Below the pieces are notes generated by a model. It was not told the origin of the DNA. It did no database searches and was given only the letters and a program-made list of their open reading frames with translations. Shown in pieces: positions 33,838-57,311 of a DNA stretch of 64,000 nt (its first letter is position 1; the number at the start of each line of letters is the position of its first letter). A program made the translations under genes and the position numbers. Source of the DNA: Candidatus Gastranaerophilales bacterium (GTDB taxonomy: Bacteria; Cyanobacteriota; Vampirovibrionia; Gastranaerophilales; Gastranaerophilaceae); contig CALUQG010000004.1 in assembly GCA_944322855.1 (NCBI GenBank), forward strand, positions 30,013-94,012, given 5' to 3'.

Positions 33838-35199
<1,362 letters not shown>

Positions 35200-35223
35200 T
35201 CAATAATTTTTATTGATTATAAT

Positions 35224-35258
35224 AAAACGGATGTGGGTTTTACCTGCATCCGTTTTTT
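35224..35258. terminator. Rho-independent terminator between convergent genes
   Basis: Stem ACGGATG.../...CATCCGT, extended by G-U and G-C pairs, with an A-run before and TTTTTT after. Confidence 0.75.
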
Positions 35259-35265
35259 AATTTCG

Positions 35266-35883
35266 TTATTCAAGAAATCCGCCAAAAAAGTTTTTCAAAG
35301 TATCTTCTTCGCCATTATCTTTATAATAAGTTGTATGCGAATTTCTATAGTCTGTTGAAAACGTTTGATATGAGCTGGGTTTATGATTTGGATGGAATTT
35401 AACTTTGTCGTATTGTCGTTCTACTACAACTTTGTTGTTTTTAAATCCGAATTGTATAGCATTTTGATAACGGTGACCAAATGGGTTACAAAAATTTATG
35501 GAATTGTCATAGGCTGTAATTAATGGGGAACCGTTGCGTTCCACTATAGTTTCGTCATGGCTTATTAATCCTGATTTGAATGCCTGGCTGAATTTTTTCA
35601 GTTTGTATTTCATAAAATCTGTTTCTTTTAACAATGTTGCTGCAACGGATGCCTTACATTTTCCTTCTGAAATAGCTGTGGATATTAGCCTGTTGAACAA
35701 GTATTCTAGTTCATCATATTGTTTGATATCAAAGTTATGGCTTGTAATTTTAGAGAATAAATTGTTGTAATTTCCAAAGTTGACCGTGTCTTTTTTTACA
35801 ACATGATTTATTGTTTGATTTTTATGAGTGTAATGAATAGTTTGAGCAGGTGAGTAGTTTGTTGTAATTTGTTGAATACGCAT
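35266..35883 (-). CDS. Hypothetical protein (orphan), immediately downstream of tRNA-Arg
   Basis: The 205-aa ORF matches no recognised family. The N-terminus is MRIQQIT...DTVNFGNY. Confidence 0.45.
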   Translation of the reverse strand: MRIQQITTNYSPAQTIHYTHKNQTINHVVKKDTVNFGNYNNLFSKITSHNFDIKQYDELEYLFNRLISTAISEGKCKASVAATLLKETDFMKYKLKKFSQAFKSGLISHDETIVERNGSPLITAYDNSINFCNPFGHRYQNAIQFGFKNNKVVVERQYDKVKFHPNHKPSSYQTFSTDYRNSHTTYYKDNGEEDTLKNFFGGFLE

Positions 35884-35991
35884 AGTGTGGCTCCATATTT
35901 TATTTGTAGATGCATTTGTATTTTATTACGTACCATGGAGAGTAGGTCTAATCAATAAAAGGTATAGTAAAGTTAACAAATTTGTAAAATT

Positions 35992-36065
35992 TGTGCCCGG
36001 GGAGATTCGAACCCCCGGCCTGCAGCTTCGGAGACTGCCGCTCTATCCGACTGAGCTACGGGCAC
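35992..36065 (-). tRNA. tRNA-Arg (anticodon CCG)
   Basis: The reverse complement folds as a cloverleaf: GUGCCCG-UA-GCUC-AGUCGGAUA-GAGC-G-GCAGU-CUCCGAA-GCUGC-AGGCC-GGGGG-UUCGAAU-CUCCC-CGGGCAC-A. The anticodon loop is C-U-CCG-A-A. CCA is not encoded. Confidence 0.9.
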
Positions 36066-36505
36066 AGATGAAAATATTTGTAACTAGATTCATTGTAGCT
36101 CAGTCGGAAAAAAATCTAAAGTACTGTTGTACTTTAACTTCGTTAAAGATACAACGGTGAGCTACGGGCACAGATGGAAATATTTGTGACTAGATTCATT
36201 GTAGCTCAGTCGGAAAAAAATCTAAAGTACTGTTGTACTTTAACTTCGTTAAAGATACAACGGTGAGCTACGGGCACAGATGGAAATATTTGTGACTAGA
36301 TTCATTGTAGCTCAGTCGAAAAAAAATCTAAAGTACTGTTGTACTTTAACTTCGTTAAAGATACAACGGTGAGCTACGGGCACAGATGAAAATATTTGTA
36401 ACTAGATTTATTGTAGCTCAGTCGGAAAAAAATCTAAAGTACTGTTGTACTTTAACTTCGTTAAAGATACAACGGTGAGCAACAGGCACAGATGGAAATA
36501 TTTGA
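36053..36505 (-). repeat. Tandem array, 106-bp unit x 4 plus a partial 5th, abutting and overlapping the 5' end of tRNA-Arg
   Basis: Unit starts are at 36053, 36159, 36265, 36371 and 36477 (degenerate). Units differ by a few point changes (A/G at two positions, C/T, G/A). Each contains TGAGCTACGGGCAC, the complement of tRNA nt 1-14. Confidence 0.9.
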
Positions 36506-36545: not shown

Positions 36546-37883
36546 TTAATTCGATGATTTTTCTTTTCTTTCTCTGAAAGACATTCTCACAGGAGTGCCG
36601 AAGAAGCCGAAAGCTTCTCTCATTTTGTTTTCAAGATATCTTTTATAACTGTCTTGAACAAGGTCTTCATCATTTACAAACAAAATAAAAGTAGGCGGAG
36701 CGGTTCGAACCTGTGTTGCATAATATACTCTGAGTTTTTTCCCTCGTTTTGTCGCAGGAGGGTTCATTGCCATGGCTTCCAGCAGAACTTTGTTCAAAAT
36801 ACTTGTAGAAACTCGTTTTGTACACTGTGCATATACGTCTTTTGCCTGTTTGTAAATATTAACGAGTCTTTGTTTTGTCTTTGCACTTATGAAGATTTTA
36901 GGCGCAAAATCCAAAAACGGGGCATCGTGCATAAGTTTTTGAGTATATTTTGCAGTCGGATCTGATTTGTCTTTGTCTTCCACAATATCCCATTTGTTTA
37001 CAGCAACGATTAAACCTTTTCCTGCTTCAACAACAATCTGTGAAATCTTTTTGTCCTGATCAGTTAATCCGTCTGCTGCATCAATAACAAGCACTGCAAT
37101 ATCACAGTCTTTTATTGCTCTTATGGCTCTGTCAACGGCGAATTTTTCAACACCCCAGTCAACTTTGGCTTTTTTTCTGATGCCGGCCGTGTCTACAAGG
37201 ATAAATTCTTCTCCTTCATATTTTACTTTTGAGTCAATACTGTCACGTGTTGTACCTGAAACATCACTGACAATAACTCTGTCTTCACCAAGCAATGCGT
37301 TTACGATTGAAGATTTTCCTGCATTTGGTTTTCCGACAATTGCAATTTTTATTATCTCACTTTCTTCGGGATTTTCGTCTGCTTCAAAATCTTCGGTTAT
37401 TGCTTCCAGAAGATCGCCGACACCACCTGAACCGTGCAAAGCGGATATGGCATGCGGTTCACCTATTGCGAGAGCATAAAAATCTGAAATCAAGTTGAAA
37501 TGTTCCGGTGCATCAAGTTTATTTACTGCCAGATAGACAGGTTTTCCGCTTCTTCTTAAAACATTTGCAATGTCGTAGTCAACTGGGTTTATGCCTTCTT
37601 TTCCGTCAACAAGAAAAATAATTTTGTCAGCTTCTTCACAGGCAACTTTTGCCTGAGTAAAGATATTAAGCATAATCTCATCTTCATCACCCGGAATAAT
37701 ACCGCCGGTGTCTATAAGTGTAAATTGCTTGTTTTGCCATTCGACATCAAAATAAATCCTGTCACGGGTAACGCCAGGCTGGTCATCTACTATTGATTGA
37801 CGTGAGCCTACTATCCTGTTTACAAATGTTGATTTTCCTACATTGGGTCTTCCGACTACGGCGACAACGGGTCTATTGCTCAT
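36546..37883 (-). CDS. der: Ribosome-associated GTPase Der (EngA), double GTPase + KH-like domain
   Basis: There are two G-domains (GRPNVGKST...DTGG...NKLD and GKPNAGKSS...DTAG...NKWD). The start is set at MSNRPVVAVVG (ATG 37881-37883). Confidence 0.9.
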   Translation of the reverse strand: MSNRPVVAVVGRPNVGKSTFVNRIVGSRQSIVDDQPGVTRDRIYFDVEWQNKQFTLIDTGGIIPGDEDEIMLNIFTQAKVACEEADKIIFLVDGKEGINPVDYDIANVLRRSGKPVYLAVNKLDAPEHFNLISDFYALAIGEPHAISALHGSGGVGDLLEAITEDFEADENPEESEIIKIAIVGKPNAGKSSIVNALLGEDRVIVSDVSGTTRDSIDSKVKYEGEEFILVDTAGIRKKAKVDWGVEKFAVDRAIRAIKDCDIAVLVIDAADGLTDQDKKISQIVVEAGKGLIVAVNKWDIVEDKDKSDPTAKYTQKLMHDAPFLDFAPKIFISAKTKQRLVNIYKQAKDVYAQCTKRVSTSILNKVLLEAMAMNPPATKRGKKLRVYYATQVRTAPPTFILFVNDEDLVQDSYKRYLENKMREAFGFFGTPVRMSFRERKEKSSN

Positions 37884-54961: not shown

Positions 54962-54986
54962 GAACATACCTTGAAATCAAAACTAT

Positions 54987-55076
54987 GGAAAAGTGGCCGA
55001 GTAGGCTGAAGGCGGCACCCTGCTAAGGTGTTAGGTGGAGTAATCTGCCTCGAGGGTTCGAATCCCTCCTTTTCCG
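54987..55076 (+). tRNA. tRNA-Ser (anticodon GCU), copy 1
   Basis: The acceptor GGAAAAG/CUUUUCC is fully Watson-Crick. D-stem is GCC/GGC. Anticodon arm is GCACC-CUGCUAA-GGUGU. There is a long variable arm and a T-arm GAGGG-UUCGAAU-CCCUC. Length is 90 nt. Confidence 0.9.
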
Positions 55077-55082
55077 ATTTTT

Positions 55083-55114
55083 AATCCACCCTCAACAGAA
55101 AGGTGGATTTTTTA
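55083..55114 (+). terminator. Rho-independent terminator after tRNA-Ser copy 1
   Basis: ATCCACC-ctcaacagaaa-GGTGGAT followed by TTTTT. Confidence 0.8.
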
Positions 55115-55253
55115 ATGGTTTTTGTTGTATTAAATGTACTTTTTTGAGTAATTTGGTATGGTTTGACAGACATTACAGGAATTTGATTTTTTGAACTAAT
55201 AGGGCTGTGTTTCAAATATATCTTGATTTTTTAGTCGGAAATCACTAAAAATG

Positions 55254-55392
55254 AAATTCCTGAACTGGCAAAAAAGTCCGATTACTGTCCGTCAATGTCT
55301 AAAACCAAACAGTGGCTCAAAAGCTTAAATGGTGAGAATTTAGACACAGTTTAAGAAATTCCTGAACTGTCTGTCAAATATTCCTGAACTGG
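55254..55392 (+). repeat. Three direct copies of a 13-14 nt motif A[AT]ATTCCTGAACTG
   Basis: Copies are at 55254-55268, 55356-55370 and 55378-55392, in ORF-free DNA. Confidence 0.8.
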
Positions 55393-55418
55393 TTGTTCTT
55401 TTACAACCAGTGTTTTTT
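55389..55418 (+). terminator. Orphan terminator-like hairpin at the breakpoint of the tspO remnant
   Basis: Perfect 8-bp stem CTGGTTGT-tctttt-ACAACCAG followed by TGTTTTTT. No ORF lies upstream of it. Confidence 0.5.
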
Positions 55419-55601
55419 GGGCTTAAAAAGATTTTTTTAGCACTTTTAATTTGCACTCTGTTATGGCTCTCGATAATCTGCTTAATCTTACTGTTTTACA
55501 AACATTCCAAACTTGCCTCTTTACTTTTAGTACCATATTTTCTTTGGACATCTTTTGCATGGTATCTTAATTTTTCACTGTGGATTTTAAACAAAAATTA
55601 A
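55410..55601 (+). pseudogene. tspO: TspO/MBR (tryptophan-rich sensory protein) C-terminal remnant
   Basis: The translation ...QPVFFGLKK...LLWLSI...ASLLLVPYFLWTSFAWYLNFSLWILN matches the last ~2.5 TM helices of TspO (LLxPYxxWxxFAxxLN). The frame is open only back to a TAG at 55341-43, so the N-terminal ~85 aa are missing. Confidence 0.5.
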
Positions 55602-55700
55602 AATATAAAATTTTAAAATTAGTACTTGAAATAATTATTTTATGGCATAGACTTATTATGTAAATAGCAGTTTAACATTAATAACAGATAGCGTAATAGT

Positions 55701-56231
55701 ATGTCATTTATACATAGATTGTGTGAAAGGCTTGGAGAAAACAACAAGCCGATTTATACCGTTTTGGCCGTAGCCTGCGGGAAAGGTACAGTAAGACCTA
55801 TTTTAAGTATCACCGATAAAAAAGAGTCTCCTGATGCTAGAAAATATGCCGCATTGAGAGAATTAATGACGGAATTTATCGGAGTCCCAACAACAATGGC
55901 TCTTGGGTTACTCGGTGAAACTTGTGCAAATTTTATTGCAGGTAAAGGTTCAACAAAACACAAAAACGCAAGTTCTATATTATCGTTCTTGGGTATATGC
56001 CTTGCAGCAGGATATTTTGTTCCAAAATTCTGCAATATAGGAATGCCACCTGTTATGAAGAAATTAATGCCGAACTATGACCCAAATGCAACAAGCAGAT
56101 ACGATAATGCAGTAAAATTAACAAACACTGTAAACAAGCCTCAAAACTTGCAAAATACAACACAAATAAATTATTCAGTATATAAAGTAAGCAAAAATAC
56201 ACCGTATTTTCGCGCGGGAATGAGAGTGTAA
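55701..56231 (+). CDS. Hypothetical small membrane protein (paralogue A)
   Basis: The 176-aa ORF has two hydrophobic segments. It shares K.T.RP...DK....KYAA..E and a C-terminal SSI.S......PVM with the next gene. Confidence 0.5.
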   Translation: MSFIHRLCERLGENNKPIYTVLAVACGKGTVRPILSITDKKESPDARKYAALRELMTEFIGVPTTMALGLLGETCANFIAGKGSTKHKNASSILSFLGICLAAGYFVPKFCNIGMPPVMKKLMPNYDPNATSRYDNAVKLTNTVNKPQNLQNTTQINYSVYKVSKNTPYFRAGMRV

Positions 56232-56234
56232 ATT

Positions 56235-56834
56235 ATGCAAATCACACCATTACAAAAAACATTAATAAACATAAGGAAAACAGCAACAAATCCTAAATTT
56301 GCAGAATTTGCCAGAAACACAGTCTGCGCTATTTCTGTAGAAACCACATTAAAAGCAACAGGCAGACCGGCTTTTATTTACTACGACAAACACGCAAACA
56401 AACAATCAAAAAAATACGCGGCGACAAAAGAATTCTTGTACCAATCATTTTGTCTCGGTTTATATTTAAGCCTAATAAACAAGTTTAAAAACAAAACTTA
56501 CAAAATATTAAGCAAACATTTTGCAGACAAAAACCCCGAAGATAAAAGGAAACTTGAACTTTATGATAATTTCCAAGCAAAAATAAAAGGGGCCAAAGAC
56601 AAAGAAGCAAAAGCTCTATTGGAAAAACAGTTCAACAGACTTTTACATACAAACAAAGACTACCACTTTGGAAAAGGAGTAAAAGAAGTTAGCTCAATTA
56701 TATCAACAGTGATAATCCTTGCTTTGTGCGCACCGATATCATCACAAATCATATTACACCCTGTTATGGATATGATATTTAAAAAGCCATCAAAAAATCA
56801 AAAACAACAAAACAATGTCAAAACAAAAGCATAA
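56235..56834 (+). CDS. Hypothetical small membrane protein (paralogue B)
   Basis: The 199-aa ORF starts 4 nt after paralogue A. It has the same motif order (KATGRPAFIYYDKHANKQSKKYAATKE; SSIISTVIILALCAPISSQIILHPVM). Confidence 0.5.
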   Translation: MQITPLQKTLINIRKTATNPKFAEFARNTVCAISVETTLKATGRPAFIYYDKHANKQSKKYAATKEFLYQSFCLGLYLSLINKFKNKTYKILSKHFADKNPEDKRKLELYDNFQAKIKGAKDKEAKALLEKQFNRLLHTNKDYHFGKGVKEVSSIISTVIILALCAPISSQIILHPVMDMIFKKPSKNQKQQNNVKTKA

Positions 56835-56850
56835 TAATCTGCTAAAAATT

Positions 56851-56878
56851 TTGAGATATGTATTTTTTGTAGTAAAAT
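56851..56878 (+). promoter_or_regulatory. Candidate sigma-70 promoter for tRNA-Ser copy 2
   Basis: TTGAGA (56851-56), a 16-nt spacer, then TAAAAT (56873-78). The tRNA starts at 56889. Confidence 0.5.
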
Positions 56879-56888
56879 CAAAGAAAGA

Positions 56889-56978
56889 GGAGAGGTGTCC
56901 GAGTAGGCTGAAGGCGGCACCCTGCTAAGGTGTTAGGTGGAGTAATCTGCCTCGAGGGTTCGAATCCCTCCTTTTCCG
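56889..56978 (+). tRNA. tRNA-Ser (anticodon GCU), copy 2, with a chimeric-looking 5' end
   Basis: It is identical to copy 1 from nt 11 onward. The 5' end GGAGAGGUGU gives two G-U pairs in the acceptor stem and a U10-C25 mismatch in the D-stem. Confidence 0.8.
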
Positions 56979-57101: not shown

Positions 57102-57311
57102 TCGGTTGGGCATATTCGCTCAACGACACTAAATATTAGCCGTCGGAAGTTGTTTGATTATACCAAAATCAAACTGGACGAAAACGGACTTTATTAGGAC
57201 ATAAAGTTACAAAGAATATTTTGAAATTAGGCTGAAACTAAACAAAAATCAAAGAAAATCCCGATTCCCAATAATGTCCAGTTTTATCGTTGGGCAGGTA
57301 TGCCCAACCGA
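57102..57311. repeat. MITE/REP-like element, copy A (~210 bp) with palindromic inverted termini
   Basis: The left end is TCGGTTGGGCATATTCGCTCAACGA. The right end reads TCGGTTGGGCATACCTGCCCAACGA on the other strand. No ORF lies inside. Confidence 0.65.

Follow-up and report, generated by a model that had tools for sequence, protein, structure and literature searches.

Tandem 106-bp modules that split the tRNA-Arg(CCG) gene yet leave it intact in Gastranaerophilales, an apparently undescribed family of tRNA-gene inserts

Tandem repeats that carry pieces of a tRNA gene have been described beside functional tRNA genes in bacteria and in plastids. In Escherichia coli, approximately three tandem 178-bp repeats (rtT RNA) lie distal to tyrT, each with the terminal ~19 nt of the tRNA, and are co-transcribed with it. 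In the plastids of Brassicaceae, Solanaceae and Asteraceae, one to seven tandem partial copies of trnF(GAA) are located 5' of the functional gene; these copies measure 32-73 bp, consist chiefly of anticodon, T and D domains, acceptor stems being absent from most of them, their number varies among lineages, promoter motifs are interleaved with them, and slippage and recombination have been invoked for their origin (PMC3786074). The present work concerns an array of 106-bp modules directly 5' of the tRNA-Arg(CCG) gene of a Candidatus Gastranaerophilales bacterium, contained in a 64,000-nt stretch of contig CALUQG010000004.1 (the window). Similar to the plastid arrays, it consists of tandem tRNA fragments 5' of a functional gene, with four stubs near-identical to tRNA nucleotides (nt) 1-14 and a copy number that varies among close lineages; however, neither a conserved foreign hairpin core, an inverted copy of the D arm, a replacement of the gene end nor a mirror-image 3' version has been reported for the plastid arrays, and the tRNA part of the window unit is exactly nt 1-14. 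Dissimilar from the array as well, the tyrT repeats are on the 3' side and contain no inverted copy of a tRNA arm, and the Rfam family RtT does not match the array.

tRNA genes are also the targets of integrative elements such as prophages and genomic islands, which usually replace the 3' part of the gene. The replacement end keeps the gene intact, the displaced end persists as a partial tRNA, and successive integrations repeat the partial tRNAs, all of which resembles the modules described here; in tycheposons, partial tRNAs flank and separate integrative elements (bioRxiv 10.1101/2020.12.28.424599). Such elements span kilobases and encode a recombinase, whereas the module has ~92 bp of non-tRNA DNA and no recombinase, brings a probable promoter and a 5' end, and holds an inverted arm copy. 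Neither Rfam nor the literature searched yielded a matching family, in line with the initial annotation of this DNA, which knew of no described element of such organisation. The finding is accordingly filed under tandem partial-tRNA repeats and tRNA-gene insertions, where inserts that split tRNA genes yet leave them intact apparently form a small, undescribed family.

The tRNA-Arg(CCG) gene at 35991..36066 is intact and does not encode CCA (ARAGORN; Rfam RF00005, 66.3 bits), and both the gene and the array are on the minus strand. The array, at 36066-36504, comprises four full 106-bp modules and a 15-nt partial copy. Tandem Repeats Finder reported a period of 106 for 36052-36504, with 4.3 copies, 97% matches and zero indels, and a separate repeat search agreed with this register, bearing out the four units and partial fifth that had been annotated. 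On the transcribed strand, each module reads stub, CC, 13-bp hairpin, 8-bp hairpin, GA and T7, a 14-nt reverse complement of tRNA nt 7-20 (the anti-D), TACAAT, and a leader of ~26 nt. The stub, GTGCCCGTAGCTCA, is tRNA nt 1-14; its copies lie at 36158-36171, 36264-36277, 36370-36383 and 36476-36489, and the genuine nt 1-14 at 36052-36065. These four stubs are the tRNA copies with which the units had been said to begin, and the most distal, GTGCCTGTTGCTCA, is degenerate, with two changes. The anti-D segment TCCGACTGAGCTAC, allowing at most one mismatch, occurs five times in the window versus 0.01 times by chance. At the gene itself, the D-arm segment (nt 7-20, 36046-36059) and the first anti-D (36095-36108) form a perfect 14-nt inverted repeat, which was found again at the positions first given.

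Module 1, which adjoins the tRNA, occupies 36066..36171 (repeat finding; covariance-model match of 79.9 bits). Its stub at 36158-36171 is followed by the 13-bp hairpin at 36126-36155, which has one bulged base and a GAA loop and had been described as a bulged stem of 12 bp; the pairs number 13. Apart from this number, every detail of the initial annotation was borne out. The alternative 8-bp hairpin, TAAAGTAC-AACA-GTACTTTA, together with GA-T7 occupies 36108-36136 and overlaps the first, and folding confirmed that both exist and exclude each other. The -35-like TTTAGA (36115-36120) and the -10-like TACAAT (36092-36097), both from a promoter consensus scan, lie on either side of the anti-D, and the leader (36066-36091) completes the module. 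The same parts recur shifted by +106 in module 2 (36172..36277; repeat finding and covariance model) and by +212 in module 3 (36278..36383; covariance model), where the anti-D (36307-36320) has a single C-to-T change that still permits a G-U pair. Module 4 (36384..36489; covariance model) is the most distal and bears the degenerate stub. The partial fifth copy (36490..36504) is the last ~15 nt of the leader, CAAATATTTCCATCT, and is the truncated distal end of the array. Units 1 and 4 carry TAGTTAC...TTTTCATC, and units 2 and 3 carry TAGTCAC...TTTCCATC, as had been described.

The protein encoded upstream of the array, Der, is residue-identical in independent metagenome assemblies of the human gut, where at least 22 contigs encode it; array content was compared on ten of these contigs. 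The array was present in all ten, with one module in L009, two in L003 and four in L004 (L-numbers are labels of contigs or loci from related genomes and metagenome assemblies), and the unit variants of L004 differ from those of the window. Four of the ten assemblies have runs of N inside the array and four contigs end within it, so that copy number in short-read assemblies is uncertain; the behaviour of the array is that of a variable-number tandem repeat, poorly resolved by short reads, and four modules is a plausible count for the window. These N gaps and contig ends, which make copy number hard to assemble from short reads, are what could be said for an assembly artefact, namely that the assembler expanded or collapsed one unit in error; however, the point substitutions among the units follow a consistent pattern, independent samples and assemblers gave one, two or four modules with variants of their own, and one or two modules are present in other species on 0.6-Mb contigs, which makes this explanation scarcely credible. 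Because ten independent assemblies carry the array with differing unit variants, it is not an assembly artefact, and the initial annotation was right to argue against a simple one.

A genome scan with Der placed the lineage in Gastranaerophilales (Melainabacteria), near "Candidatus Limenecus", the best species representatives being 93% identical. In related genomes, a search of which had been proposed at the outset, the module with its anti-D was found in five further species, at the identical position between nt 14 and 15 of tRNA-Arg(CCG). At least two modules were found in L020 and two upstream of the gene in L026; a single module in L031 is fixed in 10/10 of the strains compared from its species; L091-L093 have one, with L092 and L093 on contigs of ~0.6 Mb; and the species represented by L108-L116 has 107-nt units in one, two or more copies, on contigs that break in the array, the distal end of which is truncated within a unit. 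The module is absent at tRNA-Arg(CCG) in species L017, L027, L029, L030, L021 and L024, and bearers and non-bearers are interspersed in a Der tree.

The boundaries of the module were given exactly by L031 and L029, whose HIT proteins are 97% identical and whose native promoter regions upstream of the tRNA are nearly the same. The two differ by exactly one module after tRNA nt 14, bounded by the 14-nt repeat, such that L031 reads native promoter, leader, nt 1-14, a module ending in a second nt 1-14, and nt 15-76. A direct repeat of a tRNA segment hence bounds the inserted DNA and the gene is restored, as in an attL/attR-type arrangement. In L093, the distal stub GTGCCAG perfectly complements the 3' acceptor strand, while the proximal, functional GTGTCAG gives a U-G pair, and the stub therefore fits a displaced original 5' end. 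Because 14-nt direct repeats bound the module, slippage or unequal exchange could add or remove whole modules without any dedicated machinery. These data show that the module is a discrete insertion/deletion difference with exact boundaries and variable copy number, recurring in six species. The empty sites may be ancestral or may represent precise losses; both are compatible with these data, which leave the direction of the indel either way. Among the three readings offered by the initial annotation, the recombination scar is the best, as filled and empty alleles differ by one module and copy number varies.

On balance, the array is probably a DNA-level feature: an amplified 106-bp 5' replacement module located between nt 14 and 15 of tRNA-Arg(CCG), the number of which varies by slippage. 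In this account, the module would supply the hairpin core, an A/T-rich stretch, the inverted D arm, a -10-like box with leader, and a fresh nt 1-14, so that the gene downstream of it would be whole again and the displaced original 5' end would remain as a dead 14-nt stub. Since the 14 nt at the end of each module are also those before it, modules can be added or dropped by slippage or unequal recombination, which would yield one, two, or four and more copies depending on the strain, and an empty site upon loss of the last module. Each module may be a small transcription unit ending at hairpin and U-run, of which only the last promoter would yield tRNA; a read-through RNA would misfold, with the anti-D on the D arm and the stub on the 3' acceptor strand. 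The first module may have arisen by a target-templated insertion or a template-switch event.

Modules of the same design were also found at a second tRNA gene. At tRNA-Ile(GAT), the module in L013 (5653-5760), equivalent to L177 ~710-818 and L180 1-65, consists of an upstream stub of nt 1-19, a hairpin with a GAA loop, a 19-nt anti-D that complements nt 10-28 of its own D arm with one wobble, and a 23-nt leader. The independent assembly L180 begins inside this module, and related genomes, L139 (2900-3030) among them, have the tRNA behind the same native promoter with the site empty. CTTT(AA)CGAAGTTAAA(G/T)TA is common to the Ile and Arg cores, and none of 2000 shuffles scored as high (0/2000). 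A search for further Ile modules that started from the DUF6812 and HTH proteins encoded nearby turned up empty alleles and a single independent confirmation, and no new species. Between tRNA-Ile and der in L177/L178 (1-1200) is an HTH-HipA toxin-antitoxin pair, which is 3' of the tRNA in L177 and adjoins a gene for a 179-aa tyrosine recombinase (Pfam Phage_integrase) in L178; this suggests an integrative island at tRNA-Ile in these two loci.

The 3' end of tRNA-Arg(CCG) carries tandem 87-nt units in some relatives: one in L031 (2316-2420), at least two in L023 (1-230) and five to six in L026 (1322-1800), with L029 showing the empty state. Within each unit are the tRNA's final 12 nt, a variable trailer of ~21 nt, 13 nt complementary to the T arm (nt 49-61) and two small hairpins, and the unit is geometrically a mirror image of the 5' module. 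The lengths of target duplicated are 14, 19 and 12-24 nt. A scheme in which terminal inverted repeats join 5' and 3' modules into one tRNA cassette was rejected, as the similarity between module ends is not significant. In the 3' flank of the window gene, a degenerate anti-T-like remnant, TTGATTAGACC (35945..35955, minus strand), may correspond to TTGATTCGAACC in the 3' modules of relatives, a low-confidence assignment made by reading the sequence. A 16-nt palindrome, AAAGTTAACAAATTTG / CAAATTTGTAAAATTT (35969-35992), begins at the 3' end of the gene, within a stretch of ~23 nt that is missing from the 3' trailers of relatives. Inserted in one 3' module of L023 (~230-1000) is a gene that resembles a REP-associated tyrosine transposase (RAYT), its HxH and Y motifs read by eye, which is flanked by REP-like hairpins GTAGGTTGGGCA...TGCCCAAC; a REP-like sequence in the window (~57105-57125), GGTTGGGCATATTCGCTCAAC, resembles those of L023.

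The presence of modules at a second tRNA, the mirror-image 3' modules and the copying of the anti-arm from the local target point to a recurrent, target-related process and not to one accident. It is possible, and here put forward tentatively, that the modules are tiny non-autonomous elements of an undescribed kind that insert into the first tRNA arm, i.e., the D loop on one strand and the T stem on the other; such elements would bear a segment complementary to the target arm, as a guide or a templated footprint, would heal the gene themselves by supplying a replacement end and a promoter, and would build arrays because each copy recreates the target.

Comparison of the six species revealed which parts of the 5' module are kept. 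Stub, CC and hairpin are almost invariant and the leader is unalignable. All 13 hairpin pairs (13/13) form in every species, with compensatory changes at two of them (U-A to A-U and A-U to G-C) and a bulge whose position is kept and whose base varies, and the 13-bp hairpin is the minimum-free-energy fold of the isolated core in 6/6 species, at -11 to -14 kcal/mol. The anti-D matches the D arm of its own tRNA throughout and tracks D-loop positions 16 and 17: where these are T and C (the window species, L020 and L110) the anti-D has A and G opposite, and where they are C and A (L031 and L091) it has G and T, with L026 showing one G-T pair. The T-run can extend this helix over nt 21-25 through A-U and G-U pairs only. 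In RNA, with G-U pairs counted, the helix of anti-D and D arm can span ~18 bp. A convincing terminator-like alternative hairpin is confined to the multi-copy species (the window species, L026 and L108-L116); in L031 and L091, core folding yielded the 13-bp hairpin alone and nothing comparable to a terminator hairpin.

Several other identities of the repeat were considered and set aside. A double-stranded palindromic operator for a dimeric regulator is unlikely, as there is one half-site with a conserved extra base of varying identity. The GTT...AAC boxes are in the wrong polarity for an integron attC site by sequence reading, and a fold-back palindrome or tandem inversion duplication does not agree with the 35-nt loop, which is not palindromic, or with a core and leader that do not come from the local flank. 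The array is neither coding nor CRISPR, as had been stated: the units are 97% identical over their whole 106 bp and have no spacers between them, a period of 106 is no multiple of 3, and no open reading frame (ORF), including one for a leader peptide, is conserved; a short leader frame starting with ATG is lost in some units (AATAAAT) and in other species by sequence reading. The only Rfam match above chance was RF00005, the tRNA itself, with RtT and T-box among the families compared.

Attenuators and T-box leaders likewise contain mutually exclusive hairpins, one with a U-run, upstream of a gene of the translation apparatus; however, they control mRNAs and have conserved sensor elements, whereas the module precedes a tRNA gene and its terminator alternative is not conserved. 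A cis-regulatory RNA leader of this general type, which had been among the first proposals, would work as a three-way switch: the anti-D would pair over 8 bp with the upstream stub or over 14-18 bp with the real D arm, the choice would fall to the conserved hairpin between them or to the terminator hairpin with U7, termination or pre-tRNA folding and maturation would be controlled, and the array would reiterate the leader. We regard this as an unlikely explanation of the array, albeit one with several observations in its favour. The mutually exclusive hairpins are real in the window, the pairing of the T-run to nt 21-25 solely by A-U and G-U is an RNA-type pattern, the bulge is conserved in position and variable in base, and the logic of stub, anti-D and D arm is repeated at tRNA-Ile. 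Predicted read-through RNA folds are far more stable than shuffles (z = -7.2 and -6.2); in them, the anti-D pairs with the real D arm and the stub with the 3' acceptor strand, such that the RNA is cloverleaf-like with a large insertion replacing the D arm. The six-species consensus agrees with this fold: the 13-bp hairpin is kept, as is an anti-D/D helix of 18 bp in which both partners of two pairs have changed. The sequestration of the D arm by the leader, as first suggested, thus appears in the predicted folds of read-through RNA, and stands as a prediction.

The placement of the predicted promoter speaks against such a switch. The consensus scan found TTTAGA-17-TACAAT in every unit, with the -10-like box 26 nt before tRNA nt 1, and a TACAAT or TATAAT box follows the anti-D in all Arg modules. 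Because the anti-D sits between the -35-like and -10-like boxes, a transcript from the module's own predicted promoter would lack it. If this promoter is real, transcripts of the last module would be ordinary pre-tRNAs without anti-D, and those of the upstream modules would be RNAs of ~85 nt made up of leader, stub, hairpin and U-run. The terminator scan found no G+C-rich terminator between der and the array, and hence der transcription probably runs into module 4. The switch is further opposed by the lack of conservation of the terminator-like hairpin in the single-module L031 and L091, by close relatives (L029, L030, L017 and L027) that manage without a module, and by Ile and Arg cores that share sequence in differing structural contexts. 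Mirror-image 3' modules would not be expected of an RNA read in one direction, covariation within an inverted repeat can also come from DNA-level templated correction, and no ligand or sensor is evident and no Rfam family matches. Of the attenuator idea, the overlapping hairpins and the U-run hold for the window, but their lack of conservation in L031 and L091, the position of the anti-D inside the predicted promoter, and the mirror-image 3' modules argue against it.

The preferred explanation, a DNA-level replacement module, must itself be weighed against a number of opposing observations. The promoter assumed in it is a weak match (9/12 consensus positions), and the promoter scan was not enriched over shuffles, with 10 sites versus 6.0 +/- 2.4 expected. 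A neutral scar does not account for the conservation of the hairpin or the matching of the anti-D, both of which suggest that RNA or single-stranded DNA is under some constraint. Insertion and ancestral presence followed by repeated losses account equally well for the scatter of modules in the Der tree. The 5' and 3' cores are only weakly homologous; the sole resemblance is that of the Ile 5' core to the Arg 3' core in reverse complement, in a gapped alignment. With the covariance model, the Arg-type core was found nowhere in 554 kb of related DNA besides upstream of tRNA-Arg(CCG), and since the core is found nowhere else, mobility is inferred from just two target genes and two gene ends. Neither a recombinase or transposase associated with the modules nor an autonomous parent element was found, and the core was not found in IMG/VR or in the phage and plasmid collections searched; relaxed patterns gave viral matches that appeared to be due to chance and were judged by eye to fall in coding sequence.

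Two further explanations invoke mobile elements, and some of these same absences bear on them. One holds that the modules are leftover att sites of a larger integrative element that recombined in the D arm, with an attP carrying the 5' end of the tRNA and a promoter, integrated, perhaps repeatedly, and then lost its cargo, so that attL/attR-like remnants stayed behind in tandem. A displaced original end with an element-supplied replacement end is the outcome of tRNA-targeting integrative elements, the distal stub appears to be the original end, a tyrosine-recombinase gene adjoins the island near tRNA-Ile in L178, and the window itself has a 1.8-kb insert between two copies of tRNA-Ser(GCT), the sole difference between these copies being in the first 12 nt. 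However, there is no integrase within or beside any module, and a Pfam scan of ten window ORFs, among them those next to the array and the tRNA-Ser insert, detected none. The non-tRNA part is just ~92 bp and is kept as such across six species, the core was not found in the viral, phage and plasmid collections named above, remnants of attachment sites do not need a matched inverted copy of the D arm, and the direct repeat varies in length by target (14, 19 and 12-24 nt). We consider this origin improbable.

The tRNA-Ser(GCT) pair is also of note as an observation in its own right. The genes, at 54986-55077 and 56888-56978, are 1.9 kb apart and identical from ~nt 13 to ~80 nt past the 3' end; the first 12 nt (GGAAAAGTGGCC versus GGAGAGGTGTCC) and the upstream DNA differ, so that this junction is in the D arm too. 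The insert (55078-56887) has two ORFs without a Pfam match, at 55701-56231 and 56235-56834, and three copies of ATTCCTGAACTG (55256-55267, 55358-55369 and 55380-55391) that resemble the arm sites of recombinases.

The other explanation is a non-autonomous element mobilised as single-stranded DNA, REPIN or IS200/IS605-derived, that a Y1 HUH transposase moves in trans; the transposase would recognise the bulged subterminal hairpin, and the tRNA-complementary segment would help to pick the target. IS200/IS605 transposases use some guide-to-target base pairing, and REPINs and related elements are, like the modules, ~100 bp long, rich in hairpins, non-coding and sometimes clustered. The conserved bulged hairpin is 2 nt from the distal end of the module, the module regenerates its own target proximally, a property expected to promote tandem insertion, both orientations of the module with respect to the tRNA are represented, and the REP-flanked RAYT-like gene (motifs by eye) is inside a 3' module of L023. 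In contrast to the modules, whose core is found only at the tRNA, REPINs and their kin are dispersed, are not tRNA-specific and neither duplicate nor replace any part of a gene; no dispersed copies were present in the 554 kb, versus tens to hundreds for REPINs and similar elements. In addition, the REP sequences around the RAYT-like gene (GTAGGTTGGGCA...) are unrelated to the module, the label RAYT was given by eye, and the two module ends are not significantly similar. This origin is very doubtful, slightly more so than that of leftover att sites.

In the window, the gene order on the minus strand is der, a 41-nt spacer after the der stop codon, the 15-nt partial leader, the four modules and tRNA-Arg(CCG). 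The co-directional der gene (GTPase Der/EngA; Pfam MMR_HSR1 and KH_dom-like) is at 36546..37883, and downstream of the tRNA are a 205-aa ORF without a Pfam match and then the enolase gene. A weak L20-leader match in Rfam at 35171-35267 on the plus strand (26 bits versus a gathering score of 58.7) overlaps a 15-bp terminator-like hairpin (35224-35256) at the 3' end of enolase and is probably not real. While tRNA-Arg(CCG) is downstream of der in the window, it lies in most related species between a HIT-family gene and der, in either orientation, and among close species (L011-L033, L091-L093 and L108-L133) it is also found beside a sigma-factor gene or away from HIT and der; it appears to be rearranged with unusual ease. 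Just upstream of arrays lies a conserved non-coding stretch of ~250 nt with a higher G+C content, e.g., GCCTGCCGACAACAATC...CCTCAGGATGACAATTAA, which has no Rfam match; it was located at ~1000-1260 in L108-L112, 2180-2350 in L017 and 760-900 in L026, and L017 and L026 have the segment GGCGGCAACTGCGACAC in common, in opposite orientations.

For an uncultured lineage of the human gut, the array provides a hypervariable strain marker; it repeatedly breaks short-read assemblies, and it explains the differing places and orientations of tRNA-Arg(CCG) in closely related genomes. Were the modules to act as RNA, they would constitute a rare structured leader that gates the folding of a bacterial tRNA precursor. 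If they are mobile, they would represent a new way for DNA to enter an essential gene without killing it, and the matched anti-arm segment would hint at target choice based on base pairing or at templated synthesis.

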